Positions 24,432 through 38,804 are shown, counted from the stretch's first letter. The stretch is DNA of 64,000 nt from Candidatus Omnitrophota bacterium (GCA_020632555.1 JACKFI010000001.1:133152-197151), one strand, 5' to 3'. Translations and numbers: made by a program. The notes: generated by a model from the sequence alone, not told the origin.

Positions 24432-25325
24432 TTAAAGCGTTTGAAGATAAGTGGTTAGGTTAACATCCTTGTTTGTTATACCTAATTTATTGCGGATTCT
24501 GTTCCGATGAGTCTCTACAGTCTTGGAAGAAATGTTTAACATTTCTACAATTTCTTTGCTGCTAACTCCGTTTTTAATGAGATTGGCGATCTCGACTTCA
24601 CGTGGGGATAATTTCAACTGCTGCTCAGAAACCTTAATGCCAAAAGTTGAAGTTAAGTCTTTCAAGTTCTTCTCTAAAATGTCAATATACTTTTTGTCTA
24701 AGCGGGTTCCTTTTCGCTTGATTTTCTTTAAAGCGGGAATCAAAACTTCCTCGACATTCATCACAACCCCTTCTTTGATTCTTTTTTTCTCTAATTCTAT
24801 TTGCTCCAAAATCTCCTTCAATGCCCCATTTTTTTGCTCGATAGCTTGCTCTGATTTCTTGCGATCGGTTATGTCATGCTGAATAGCGATATAATGAGTC
24901 AAATTCCCCGATTCATCCTTGATGGGCTCAATATGCCACTCATTCCAAAACTCGGAACCATCTTTGCGATAGTTAATGGCTTGCCCATAAAACACTTCTC
25001 CGGCTTCTAATGCTGCTCTAAGCCTGCGGGTAACAGATTGATCTGTCTTTGGCCCTTGTAGGATGCGAGGCGTCTTTCCCAGCACGTCCTCGGGCAAATA
25101 GCCGGTCATCCTTGTAAAACCCGGATTCACATAAAGAATTTTAGGGCCGGGCGGATCCAAATCTTTTGTTGTGACAATAATCGAATCTTGAGTAAAGTGA
25201 ACCACAGAGGCCAGAAGCTTTTCATCTGCTTGATATTTTGAATTGTATTGACTCATGCTTGTGAAATTTCCTAAAGTTTTAATCACTTTTCCCCTAATTC
25301 TACGTTGACTTGTGCAACATGACAA
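24432..25325 (-). CDS. PAS-domain / LuxR-type HTH transcriptional regulator
   Basis: N-terminal PAS (…YVNPGFTRMTGYLPEDVLG…). C-terminal LuxR/FixJ HTH (LSPREVEIANLIKNGVSSKEIVEMLNISSKTVETHRNRIRNKLG). Confidence 0.8.
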   Translation of the reverse strand: MSCCTSQRRIRGKVIKTLGNFTSMSQYNSKYQADEKLLASVVHFTQDSIIVTTKDLDPPGPKILYVNPGFTRMTGYLPEDVLGKTPRILQGPKTDQSVTRRLRAALEAGEVFYGQAINYRKDGSEFWNEWHIEPIKDESGNLTHYIAIQHDITDRKKSEQAIEQKNGALKEILEQIELEKKRIKEGVVMNVEEVLIPALKKIKRKGTRLDKKYIDILEKNLKDLTSTFGIKVSEQQLKLSPREVEIANLIKNGVSSKEIVEMLNISSKTVETHRNRIRNKLGITNKDVNLTTYLQTL

Positions 25326-25497
25326 GTGAATTTACGAGCCTGAAAACATCCCTTGATCATTCTTTTCTCATGACTATTAATAGTGGTTTTATTGTCAAAA
25401 GGCGGGATAGAACTATCTTCGATAGGTTCAGGTTATGAAAGGTCTAGCCTGATTCCCAACCTGTTTAATAACAATATGTTGCGTGATGGTCAAAAAA

Positions 25498-25515
25498 ATG
25501 TGCCAGATTTGTGCC
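25498..25515 (-). promoter_or_regulatory. Repeated 18-bp motif copy 1 (minus strand reads GGCACAAATCTGGCACAT; sigma54-like -24/-12 spacing), ~173 bp upstream of the PAS-LuxR gene
   Basis: Identical core at 29995-30012 and 35935-35952. The motif extends to ~37 bp of similarity with copy 2. The GG and GC dinucleotides are 12 nt apart as in TGGCAC-N5-TTGC. Confidence 0.4.
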
Positions 25516-25556
25516 TATCCTAAAGAGCTACTTTTTTTGATGATAAGCCGACCTGA

Positions 25557-26690
25557 TTAAGTGTCCTTCAATGCGTAACTTGTGCTGCGCCCACCCGCGG
25601 TTTCTTTTACTAAAATACCCTTTTCAACAAGATCGAGAATATCGCGCAACGCCGTGTCCTGTGAACACTGGGTGATCTTCGCCCATTTAGAAGAAGTGAG
25701 CTTGCCTTCAAAACCATCAAACAACTTATTGATGATCATCTTCTGCCTCTCGTTAAGGGATTGGGCAGGATGAGATTCCCAAAAACGCGCTTTCTTAAAT
25801 ACACCCGACAAAGTATTTTCAGTTGCATCCAACGCCCGACCCAAACAGCTCAGGAACCACACAAGCCATGGCGTAATATCAATGCCGTCTTTTGTGGCAC
25901 GGTTACTTTTCTGTGTTTTTTCAAGAATATCATAATAGGCATTCCGTTCCTGCCGGATCTGATTCGACATGCTGTAAAAACGCTCCCGGCTGCCGTCGGC
26001 ACGTGCCAGTTGCATATCGGCAATAGCCCGGGCAATTCTTCCGTTACCATCATCAAAAGGATGAAGTGTCACAAACCACAAATGCCCAATACCAGCTTTG
26101 AGCACAGGATCTAAATCCTTTGTGAGCGAAATCGAAGTGTTAAACCATTTCAGAAATTCCTTCATTTCACTTTTAAGACGGTTGGCCTGCGGTGCTTTAT
26201 AATGAACCTTCTCCCGGCCGATAGGACCAGACACAACTCTCATGGGACCATGCTTATCGTCGCGCCAATCAGCCACTGTAATTTTATGCATTCCGCTTCT
26301 ACCGGTTGGGAATAAACTGGCATGCCAGCCAAACATTCGATCCTGCGTAAGGGGCTTGTCAAATTTCTGTGTGGCATCGAGCATCATTTCCACCACTCCA
26401 TCCACATGACGATCAGAAGGCACAAGTCCACCGATGTCCATGCCCAGCCTGCGTGCAATGGATGACCGCACTTTGGCAGGGTCAAGAATCTCACCTTCAA
26501 TTTCACTACTTTTTAAAACATCAAGGGTGAGAGTCTGCAGGATTGCCTCGGAACGCAAAGAAAAACCCAATGCTTCCATTCTTCCAATCAGTCGCCCTTG
26601 GCGATTGCGGACAGTCCCCAAGATAGACGCGACCTTTTCGTGATCCCATGTCAATTTAGGCCAAATGGTTAATTCATGAATGTATTTCAT
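25557..26690 (-). CDS. fic: Fic-family protein (AMPylase/phosphocholine-transferase-type, Fic/DOC)
   Basis: Canonical Fic motif HPFDDGNGRIARA. C-terminal winged-helix-like segment. Confidence 0.88.
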   Translation of the reverse strand: MKYIHELTIWPKLTWDHEKVASILGTVRNRQGRLIGRMEALGFSLRSEAILQTLTLDVLKSSEIEGEILDPAKVRSSIARRLGMDIGGLVPSDRHVDGVVEMMLDATQKFDKPLTQDRMFGWHASLFPTGRSGMHKITVADWRDDKHGPMRVVSGPIGREKVHYKAPQANRLKSEMKEFLKWFNTSISLTKDLDPVLKAGIGHLWFVTLHPFDDGNGRIARAIADMQLARADGSRERFYSMSNQIRQERNAYYDILEKTQKSNRATKDGIDITPWLVWFLSCLGRALDATENTLSGVFKKARFWESHPAQSLNERQKMIINKLFDGFEGKLTSSKWAKITQCSQDTALRDILDLVEKGILVKETAGGRSTSYALKDT

Positions 26691-26720
26691 GGCAAATTCC
26701 TGCGGTGAATAGTCTCATTA

Positions 26721-26765
26721 TTCTACGCATACTATGCGGAGAATATACCATGTTTTCTCCGCATA
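26721..26765. promoter_or_regulatory. Three-half-site operator-like element upstream of fic: TTCTACGCATA-c-TATGCGGAGAA-(11 nt)-TTCTCCGCATA
   Basis: 26733-26743 and 26755-26765 are a perfect 11-bp inverted repeat. 26721-26731 is a 10/11 direct copy of the right arm. Located 31-75 bp upstream of the fic ATG. Confidence 0.5.
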
Positions 26766-38545: not shown

Positions 38546-38548
38546 TTG

Positions 38549-38562
38549 GTTGCGGGGACAGG
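38549..38562 (-). repeat. 14-nt direct copy (TTGCGGGGACAGGA) of the tRNA-Met 3' end, att-like
   Basis: Exact match to 38731-38744 (tRNA acceptor/T-stem 3' strand), ~170 bp downstream of the tRNA 3' end. Confidence 0.45.
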
Positions 38563-38695
38563 ACCTGCCTACCGGCAGGCAAGTTTGAATGGTTTCGCGG
38601 CTTCGCTTACGCTCAACCATTTCCTCGCCTAACGGCTCGGTCACCTGCGCTCGCTTTCGCTCGCTGCACGTCCATTCACCCATCCCACTAATAAA

Positions 38696-38725
38696 TTAAG
38701 AAGGCCCCAATTGGGGCCTTCTTAA
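38696..38725. terminator. Perfect 13-bp-arm palindromic hairpin TTAAGAAGGCCCC-AATT-GGGGCCTTCTTAA immediately 3' of tRNA-Met
   Basis: Read directly from the sequence. GC-rich stem flanked by A/T runs on both sides (bidirectional terminator-like). Confidence 0.55.
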
Positions 38726-38730
38726 TTTAA

Positions 38731-38804
38731 TTGCGGGGACAGGATTTGAACCTGTGACCTTCAGGTTATGAGCCTGACGAGCTACCGGGCTGCTCCACCC
38801 CGCG
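38731..38804 (-). tRNA. tRNA-Met (anticodon CAU), initiator-like
   Basis: Minus strand reads CGCGGGGTGGAGCAGCCCGGTAGCTCGTCAGGCTCATAACCTGAAGGTCACAGGTTCAAATCCTGTCCCCGCAA, a cloverleaf with a C1·A72 mismatch. Very close to E. coli tRNA-fMet. CCA is not encoded. Confidence 0.85.

Follow-up and report, generated by a model that had tools for sequence, protein, structure and literature searches.

A 64-kb stretch of an uncultured Candidatus Omnitrophota genome (the window, whose coordinates are used throughout) holds at 25397-38730 what is probably a composite island of ~13.3 kb, lying in a hypervariable slot between tRNA-Met(CAU) and a gene for a PAS-LuxR protein and built by serial integration. 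A sequence-only reading of this DNA had proposed an accessory island formed by repeated site-specific integration at tRNA-Met, and that proposal is supported by differences in content among relatives and by remnants of attachment (att) sites. The island starts at the 3' end of tRNA-Met. In our reconstruction of the order of events, elements with tyrosine integrases would have integrated serially into the 3' part of the tRNA gene, and their integrases and most att cores would have been deleted afterwards. What is left, from the tRNA outwards, would be an inner remnant of 167 bp that ends in a displaced tRNA copy of 20 nt, then an IS256 insertion, then three integrase-less modules, each closed by an 18-nt repeat pair (MNT-HEPN; rtcR / rtcB-SPFH-rtcA with a truncated open reading frame (ORF); and DUF6933-TPR-AbiEi-AbiEii-Fic), and last a decayed tRNA-Met half-copy followed by conserved chromosome. 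As genomic islands go it is an ordinary one, in which decayed mobile elements are stacked, each of them lacking an integrase, and the cargo consists of toxin-antitoxin, anti-phage and RNA-repair genes.

Islands linked to tRNA genes can grow as integrative elements accumulate in tandem, among them cis-mobilizable elements (CIMEs) that have no integrase. The island resembles such tRNA-linked islands in its insertion at the tRNA 3' part, in the direct repeats of tRNA segments at its boundaries and between modules, in modules that have att-type ends and no recombinase, and in the different cargo of close relatives. It differs from them in its Omnitrophota host, in having a core copy that is recognisable, in decayed form, at the outermost junction only while the inner junctions show the 18-nt repeat alone, and in the absence of conjugation, mobilisation or integrase genes from the window. 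The locus shows storage and exchange of accessory defence and RNA-repair genes in a phylum known almost only from metagenomes, at a tRNA-Met hotspot that varies in content between genomes only ~9% apart.

Conserved flanks and differing contents in relatives

The synteny scan covered GTDB species genomes with enolase as the anchor, and relatives' loci are labelled L003-L116. The best matches of the window enolase (39580-40854) reach ≤76% amino acid (aa) identity and all belong to Candidatus Omnitrophota metagenome-assembled genomes (MAGs); searches for exact matches to window proteins yielded nothing but short contigs from the same strain (two Logan assemblies). The order eno-ftsB-tRNA-Met was kept in 15 of the 17 Omnitrophota loci scanned. 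An FtsH-like gene and its neighbour are conserved too, and on the right-hand side synteny with L104 and other Omnitrophota extends over MFS ... FtsH-like-eno-ftsB-tRNA-Met. Beyond the tRNA each genome differs, with a histidine kinase, GGDEF, GH94, ShlB-type transporter, NAD synthase or flavodoxin gene; no post-tRNA DNA common to any GTDB Omnitrophota locus examined was found, and no integrase there either. Because enolase identity is only 65-76%, with 76% in the nearest GTDB species genomes, these loci establish a synteny breakpoint from which an island is not demonstrable. Several Omnitrophota MAG contigs (L003, L016 and L031) end 70-150 nt past tRNA-Met, as expected if the DNA beyond were variable or repeated within populations.

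Closer relatives revealed both the boundary and the variability. L110, whose PAS-LuxR is 95% identical (aa), is collinear with window 12871-25396 at ~90-93% nt identity (78% over hyp183), through the GST, GH2, Alginate_exp, M48, lipocalin, DUF1295, SnoaL, hyp183 and PAS-LuxR genes. The exception is a 3-kb insert found only in the window (20828-23790; Chalcone_3-HMGR-LPG_synthase_C). The hmgR gene, previously taken as a stable flank, is part of this insertion, and the mevalonate-pathway reductase (HMGR) is thus itself variable among close relatives. The Chalcone_3 gene is the only part of the insert present in L116. Upstream of PAS-LuxR, reading outwards, L110 carries DUF1499, a PIF1 fragment, a 20-nt tRNA-Met copy preceded by a homologue (93%) of the 167-bp spacer, a group II intron, a 45-nt tRNA-Met half-copy (98%) with a variant of the 18-nt motif 61 nt before it, an HD protein, an excisionase-type HTH_17 gene and a tyrosine integrase. 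Thus the slot of L110 has a tyrosine integrase in the equivalent position, together with the 45-nt and 20-nt tRNA-Met copies and no complete tRNA.

Other relatives have yet other contents between conserved flanks. L116 (PAS-LuxR 95% aa) is collinear with the window in three blocks of 86-93% nt identity from 18356 to 25334, and in its slot lie an AbiEii unlike that of the window, a complete PIF1 helicase and a fasciclin protein; neither tRNA-Met nor an att copy is present on this 12-kb contig. L108 (RtcR 97% aa) is 90-92% identical (nt) over window 30659-35953, the homology ending exactly at the first base of motif C, one of the three 18-nt copies in Table 1. In the interval from motif C to tRNA-Met, where the window has HEPN-MNT-IS256, L108 contains two methyltransferases, a weak PD-(D/E)XK match (E 2e-4, under the Pfam cut-off) and a small ORF; a homologue of the 167-bp spacer and then the tRNA-Met 3' end follow. 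A metagenome scan with a 22-mer found L084/L085, which carry no complete tRNA. Here at least 43 nt of the tRNA-Met 3' half are copied, and after this copy come a hairpin, 46 nt common to L108, the motif and an unrelated AAA_14/DUF4143 gene. In L104 (enolase 70% aa, 67% nt) the DUF6933-TPR gene, 2 kb past that genome's own tRNA-Met and beside RhuM and an insertion sequence (IS) fragment, is 76% (aa) and 77.5% (nt) identical to that of the window; it is thus more alike than enolase, which indicates gene transfer. Different contents between conserved flanks were therefore found in L110, L116, L108 and L104.

Remnants of tRNA-Met and an 18-nt repeat at the junctions

At the tRNA end, the 14-mer TTGCGGGGACAGGA occurs exactly twice in the window, at 38550 and 38731; the distance from start to start is 181 nt, and 167 nt separate the two. 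By estimate, chance would place such a 14-nt copy no more than a few hundred bases from the tRNA with a probability of ~1e-5. The sequence-only reading had noticed this duplication of the tRNA-Met 3' end; the duplication is real, but the copy sits between the tRNA and the island and therefore delimits only the 167-bp inner remnant. The L110 counterpart of the displaced copy, which in the window is split by a 20-nt insert, is unbroken (TTCAAATCCTGTCCCCGCAA, 20 nt). Homologues of the remnant occur in L110 at 7792-7901 (93%), there closing at the 20-nt tRNA copy, and in L108 at 9104-9290 (72%). The remnant holds a terminator hairpin (~38693-38725) and a G+C-rich spacer that includes the 20-nt hairpin insert at 38564-38583. 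A further hairpin, at 38508-38545, follows the displaced copy and is homologous to the hairpin after the partial tRNA copy of L084.

The distal boundary, formerly placed at 24432, is really at ~25397. Motif A is followed by 102 nt (25498->25397) that align with L110 5740-5850, where the motif, 61 nt and the 45-nt copy of tRNA-Met come one after another (69 identical columns, z=4.7, 0/1000 shuffles). This distal stretch contains ATCAGGCTAGACCTTTCATAACCTGAA, whose final 12 nt, TCATAACCTGAA (25438->25427), match the anticodon-loop region of tRNA-Met exactly; the distance from motif to 12-mer is 60 nt in the window and 62 nt in L110. The rest of the half-copy, which spans ~25400-25440, is degraded, and the distal repeat of the tRNA 3' segment is thus present as a degenerate copy. 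Collinearity with L110 picks up again at 25396, right after the decayed half-copy, which places the island at ~25397-38730. PAS-LuxR, which had been counted as part of the island, is conserved core and not cargo: its homologues are 70-95% identical (aa) across many Omnitrophota MAGs, exceeding the conservation of enolase.

The most informative repeat, a triple 18-mer (motifs A, B and C), was absent from the sequence-only reading. Its three copies are in direct orientation and confined to the island, with none elsewhere in the 64 kb; the chance expectation is ~0.05 (≤3 mismatches), and 0/100 shuffles reached three. Each consists of two TGGCACA heptamers 11 nt apart (TGGCACA-N4-TGGCACA), is intergenic, 5-40 nt past the stop of the preceding minus-strand gene (HEPN, the 141-aa ORF and Fic), and stands at a junction of unrelated modules. 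Alignment of the ~35 nt downstream of A with those downstream of B beats 1000/1000 shuffles. Furthermore, homology breaks flank the motif on opposite sides in the comparisons of the window with L108 and of L108 with L084, and the motif is therefore common to both.

The motif is linked to an integrase family in L110, where one variant lies 61 nt before the att copy and a second in the last 60 nt of the tyrosine integrase gene. This integrase is homologous (phmmer ~1e-29) to the integrases of three high-GC provirus lineages, one being Burkholderia phage phiE202 and its relatives, and those proviruses carry an identical 17-mer in the int 3' end, at a distance of 49 nt from the tRNA that marks the end of the provirus. 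The 17-mer is read as GTNMAH in L110 and as HKSGT in the Burkholderia phages; the frames differ, and it is therefore the DNA that is conserved, not the protein. We had considered the 17-mer matches in viral contigs to be a chance or coding coincidence, a view overturned by the homologous L110 integrase with the motif in another frame.

Direct repeats serving as arm-type integrase sites include lambda P'1-P'3, P2 tgTGGaCa and 186 tgccGCCActt (PMC3448106). The motif resembles the arm-type sites of heterobivalent tyrosine integrases in having two or three short direct repeats about one helical turn apart, tens of bases from the att core and beside or overlapping the int 3' end, and the phiE202-like integrases with the 17-mer have been described as being of the lambda type. 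Unlike known arm-type sites, the same 17-mer extends from Burkholderia phages to Omnitrophota, an unusually wide range, and the window copies have no integrase gene. By its position, the 18-mer would be bound as an arm-type site by the integrase family behind islands of this kind, and the three window copies would be the surviving arm ends of three stacked elements without integrases and, at B and C, without cores.

An exact 23-nt match to the motif with its T-run is also present at L083 2476-2499 (~0.5 expected), in an unrelated metagenome contig of 52% GC, between genes for a zeta-toxin-like kinase and a histidine phosphatase and by an nSTAND NTPase. This copy may be a chance match or another island junction.

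Alternative readings of the slot

Several results weigh against serial integration. The arm-site role of the 18-mer is drawn from position only, and some of the 18 viral matches to the 17-mer are at chance level for the database size. Motifs B and C have no recognisable tRNA copy after them, so the reading as three tandem elements rests on motif position and the junction breakpoints. One breakpoint between the window and L108, at the rtcA 3' end, is away from any motif, and ordinary recombination has therefore also shaped the block. An empty site, with tRNA-Met directly abutting PAS-LuxR, was seen in no relative, nor did any relative examined show the adjacency of hmgR and ftsB-eno that the sequence-only reading had proposed to look for. 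That reading had also looked to a compositional signal, further att copies and a tyrosine integrase. No compositional shift against the flanks was detected in GC, GC skew, G+C at third codon positions (GC3) or tetranucleotides: GC is 0.432 in the island and 0.420 in the window, GC3 per gene is within the flank range, and the tetranucleotide distance is not raised. A search of the whole window with the 14-mer or a 25-mer of the tRNA 3' end, mismatches allowed, gave no copies beyond the two known; it missed the distal att copy because that copy is too decayed. No integrase or resolvase was found by Pfam over ~9-47 and 52-55 kb or by a limited-sensitivity phmmer search of all window ORFs with integrase, resolvase, rve fragment and Y1 transposase queries, and the sole recombinase found is the IS256 transposase; present-day mobility is therefore unsupported. 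By those tests, the flat composition, the missing third tRNA copy and the lack of an integrase would make the island look doubtful. Island composition that differs from the host is common and not obligatory. As the results above illustrate, a composition test or an exact-repeat search would miss a true boundary that only close relatives revealed.

The 18-mer could instead be a live recombination site. An integrase of the L110/phiE202 family, with its gene in another part of the genome, would then use it to capture, excise and swap integrase-less defence and stress cassettes in the slot. We consider this unlikely. If true, it would amount to cassette exchange like that of integrons in logic, operating on lambda-type arm sites and common, to the level of an identical 17-mer, to Omnitrophota and proteobacterial phages.

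Quite unlikely, in our judgement, is a hotspot in which homologous recombination in the conserved flanks, on the tRNA-Met/eno and PAS-LuxR sides, swaps whole alleles and the att copies and 18-mers are inert relics. Flanks that are 86-93% identical among relatives around unrelated contents would fit such exchange, as would the missing integrase, the breakpoint inside rtcA away from any repeat, and an island composition equal to that of the host, which exchange within the lineage would give. Flank recombination leaves unexplained, however, why junctions of unrelated modules coincide with the 18-mer and why pairwise homology breaks on either side of it. It is also partly compatible with serial integration, since integration may build what recombination shuffles.

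A further reading, set aside on the evidence from L108, L084 and L110, took the three 18-mers as sigma-54 promoters through which RtcR, the sole enhancer-binding protein in the neighbourhood, drives PAS-LuxR, the DUF6933-TPR/AbiE/Fic genes and an rtcR antisense RNA, the block being an RtcR regulon. The 18-mers are indeed among the four best sigma-54-like sites of the window (10, 10 and 9 of 11; the fourth, at 23401, also scores 10). TGGCAC-N5-TGGCA fits the -24 GG / -12 GC spacing, and all three copies are intergenic and co-oriented with genes, with a gene start 80-240 nt downstream of A and B. A sigma-54 site of L109, TGGCACGCTTCTGGCT, between rtcR and rsr, shows that TGGC at -12 is used in the lineage, and 244 kb of other Omnitrophota loci contain few sites of this kind. 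However, copy C points into the convergent rtcR 3' end, rtcB has no sigma-54 site, and the window RtcR has GAFNCA for GAFTGA. The motif is not conserved upstream of orthologues, being absent before PAS-LuxR in L110 and L116 and before DUF6933-TPR in L104, L105 and L106. Moreover, the spacer AAATC and the flanking T-run are conserved although both flanks are unrelated, and the identical sequence lies inside integrase genes beside att sites. We therefore regard the regulon as very unlikely, and caution that a perfect-looking sigma-54 promoter by a sigma-54 activator gene is here more probably an integrase arm site.

That the block is ancestral chromosome, lost or rearranged in relatives, with no acquired island, is highly improbable: the lack of a compositional shift agrees with it, as does a divergence of the rtc module from L108 (~91%) similar to that of the core flanks from L110 (~91%), but it does not account for the tRNA-derived direct repeats at both ends and inside, the integrase-bearing element in the same slot of L110, a DUF6933-TPR gene more similar between two genomes than enolase, the IS256 insertion, or four different contents in four relatives.

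Gene content of the island and its surroundings

Features were called from an ORF listing, ARAGORN, Pfam, PADLOC and NCBIfam (Table 1), and nearly every gene call of the sequence-only reading was reproduced; the SPFH/Band-7 gene between rtcB and rtcA had been overlooked. In an Rfam scan of the island, the tRNA was the sole match at the gathering and E≤1 thresholds.

Table 1 Coordinates of the features of the island and its borders.
Feature	Coordinates	Strand	Basis and remarks
PAS+GerE (PAS-LuxR) protein	24432-25325	-	Pfam
Island distal end, attR-like	25397-25498	-	Arm sequence, then decayed tRNA-Met 3'-half copy
Motif A, AGGCACAAATCTGGCACA	25499-25516	-	Whole-window repeat search
Element III cargo	25557-29918	-	DUF6933-TPR, AbiEi, AbiEii, class II Fic
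DUF4172+Fic	25557-26690	-	Pfam; PADLOC SoFic 9e-43
AbiEii	26919-27866	-	PADLOC 2e-69
AbiEi	27859-28452	-	PADLOC 4e-86
DUF6933 + ST7-like TPR protein, 449 aa	28569-29918	-	Domain matches; PADLOC candidate PDC-S63
Motif B, TGGCACAAATCTGGCACA	29996-30013	-	Repeat search; ~35 nt of arm sequence downstream common with A
138/141-aa ORF, no family match	30018-30434 / 30018-30443	-	ORF listing
rtcA	30547-31560	-	Pfam RTC 2.7e-81
SPFH/Band-7, 249 aa	31557-32306	-	Pfam
rtcB-SPFH spacer, structured, conserved	32307-32602	-	Alignment and fold
rtcB	32603-34120	-	Pfam RtcB 4.4e-102
TTGACA-N17-TATGCT upstream of rtcB	34164-34192	-	Read from sequence; arrangement kept in L108, L107
rtcR, CARF-like RtcR domain + AAA+ sigma-54-interaction domain	34244-35842	+	Pfam RtcR 2.3e-80, Sigma54_activat 3.7e-47
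Motif C, TGGCACAAATCTGGCACA	35936-35953	-	Repeat search; L108 homology ends here
Element I cargo	35977-37099	-	wHTH-MNT, HEPN and own promoter-like site
HEPN	35977-36384	-	Pfam HEPN
wHTH-MNT	36386-37015	-	Pfam NTP_transf_2; NCBIfam MntA 4.8e-8; PADLOC PDC-M05A 2.6e-15
TTGACA-N16-TATACT promoter-like site and TTAGGT repeats before MNT	37020-37099	-	Read from sequence
IS256-family insertion sequence	37100-38486	+	Pfam Transposase_mut 1.2e-89; transposase ORF 37347-38471
Displaced tRNA-Met 3'-end copy	38550-38589	-	TCCTGTCCCCGCAA (38563->38550) + TTCAAA (38589->38584), 20-nt insert between
Inner-element remnant 'alpha', 167 bp	38564-38730	-	Homologous stretches in L110, L108; GC 0.53
tRNA-Met(CAU)	38731-38804	-	ARAGORN; Rfam tRNA 64.5 bits; proximal attachment site (attL side)

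PADLOC, the kind of defence-system finder that had been suggested as a check, matched AbiEi/AbiEii, SoFic, PDC-S63 (DUF6933) and PDC-M05A (MNT) within 12 kb; at the level of hidden Markov model (HMM) matches, 'defence island' is a fair description. Full-length family HMM matches, intact motifs and canonical gene order agree with AbiE (type IV toxin-antitoxin, TA), HEPN-MNT (type VII TA) and SoFic-type class II Fic systems, and the catalytic motifs are unbroken in Fic, AbiEii, MNT and HEPN. The Fic protein has the motif HPFDDGNGRIAR at residue 210 and the N-terminal inhibitory S61-SEI-E65-G66, features of the auto-inhibited class II; its NCBIfam SoFic score is 45.9 bits against a cut-off of 550, and it is therefore not a SoFic equivalog. 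AbiEii carries the nucleotidyltransferase motif GGTSLSKGYGIIHRFSEDID (GG[ST]...D[IVL]D) with AbiEi upstream, the two genes overlapping by 8 nt. MNT has GSVQQGTANKKSDVD (GS-X10-DVD) and the adjacent HEPN has R65SISQDH71 (R65-X5-H71), with a gap of one base between the genes; unlike HEPN-MNT systems in general, the window MNT has an extra N-terminal winged-helix domain (PADLOC PDC-M05A). In these families a HEPN RNase is restrained by MNT, the AbiEii nucleotidyltransferase toxin is paired with the AbiEi antitoxin/repressor, class II Fic is an auto-inhibited AMPylase, and RtcB and RtcA heal and seal RNA ends under RtcR. The cargo modules would act independently, each like its family.

Two genes had been singled out as uncharacterised candidates. 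The 141-aa ORF indeed has no family match, but it is not a complete gene: its 123 HMMER matches among 1.84 billion representatives align it to residues ~80-200 of 205-230-aa proteins, identifying it, from sequence comparison, as an N-terminally truncated member (C-terminal two thirds) of an uncharacterised ~220-aa family. This family has an invariant K-H in N-x-x-K-H-R, and no Pfam family or, by profile search, PDB relative was found for it; one homologue matches HEPN_Cthe2314 at a sub-threshold E=0.003. In L108 and L107, RlaP occupies the position of the 141-aa ORF, which fits a breakpoint at the rtcA 3' end and a truncated gene. The predicted structure of the DUF6933-TPR protein is confident (pLDDT 90). 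The C-terminal half forms a TPR solenoid that also occurs in proteins bearing SEC-C or other N-domains, and Foldseek of the full model returned only generic TPR proteins. As a lead from the model, DUF6933 may have an RNase-H-like fold; a conserved DDE triad, as in a DDE/RNase-H-like integrase core, was not found in it. Homologues lie in defence-type neighbourhoods, in L106 beside type I restriction-modification, DndB and a 49%-identical Fic.

The rtc genes form an Rtc system in which rtcR is divergent from rtcB and RtcA is present, and the order rtcR / rtcB-SPFH-rtcA recurs in L107, L108 and L109. As in the systems of E. coli and Salmonella (PMC7790460, PMC9650030), RtcR combines a CARF-like with an AAA+ domain and RtcB and RtcA are full length. 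An SPFH gene embedded in the rtc locus, as in the window and L107, L108 and L109, is known from P. aeruginosa PaFlo8 (PMC13086221). In contrast to these systems, the window has no sigma-54 promoter before rtcB and a GAFNCA loop in RtcR, and it is without rsr (Ro60) and the tRNA-like Y-RNA repeats, which lie between rtcR and rtcB in L107 and L109 and are likewise missing from L108. No sigma-54 site was found in the rtcR-rtcB spacer 34121-34243, where the best GG-N10-GC match scores 6/11.

Loop and promoter vary together. The RtcR L1 loop of the window is GAFNCA (motif GHVKGAFNCA), and that of the 97% and 89% relatives is GAFNGA, while nearly all of about half of 120 listed homologues, those whose loops could be found by pattern, have GAFTGA, GSFTGA or GAYTGA. 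L109, a 73% relative, combines a GAFTGA loop with a sigma-54 site where one is expected; in the window, L108 and L107 the conserved element is TTGACA-N17-TA[TA]GCT instead (TTGACA-N17-TAAGCT in L107). This co-variation, which counts as a single evolutionary event, hints at a possible sigma-54-independent RtcR clade. The 296-nt spacer between rtcB and SPFH is conserved in L108 and L107 and has a long hairpin and a T-arm-like GGGGTTCAAATCCCC; it gave no Rfam match and may be what is left of, or related to, the Y-RNA-like repeats of L107 and L109. The possible GAFNxA RtcR clade with its sigma-70-like promoter, the RNase-H-like DUF6933 fold and the structured spacer of the rtc operon are leads that can be tested, and the widely conserved arm-like 17-mer with its likeness to a sigma-54 promoter is a lead as well.

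Inspection by eye gave GGTGATAT..TGTGTAAATT and AATTTACACAA..ATTACC as the ends of the IS256 element, which match imperfectly; a target-site duplication was looked for at 37100-38486 and none was detected. Its transposase seemingly lacks ~25 N-terminal residues, which are found in another frame upstream (ATG 37253), and this suggests a frameshift at the N-terminus. A 35-nt inverted repeat (83%) with GTCATCCCCGAA hairpins has one arm just inside the left end of IS256 (37123-37157) and the other (39095-39129) between ftsB and a G+C-rich 116-nt unit, present as two tandem copies (91%) at 38813-39044, directly upstream of tRNA-Met. On comparison, the 167-bp spacer proved to have no kinship with this 116-nt repeat across the tRNA.

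The PAS domain of PAS-LuxR is LOV-like. A role as a LOV blue-light photoreceptor was considered and rejected: the GxNCRFLQ position reads GKTPRILQG, with Pro for the flavin-adduct-forming Cys, and the YtvA-family match (NCBIfam) of 116 bits is far under the 250-bit cut-off.

A ~72-nt repeat (87-94% identical) at 45030-45103 recurs in L110 (8270-8340 and 10936-11007) and L116 (12091-12153, at the contig end). One of the L110 copies is inserted just after PAS-LuxR, and the unit looks like a small mobile repeat. Elsewhere in the window, three paralogous ORFs of 644-673 aa lie in tandem at 45975-51943, the one scanned (45975-47996) having a Peptidase_S74 intramolecular chaperone domain; 183-nt tandem repeats at 57016-57635 start at the 5' end of tRNA-Thr, with a further 58-nt pair before tRNA-Phe; and a 1224-aa ORF at 59377-63051 contains ~15 tandem repeats of 156-159 nt.

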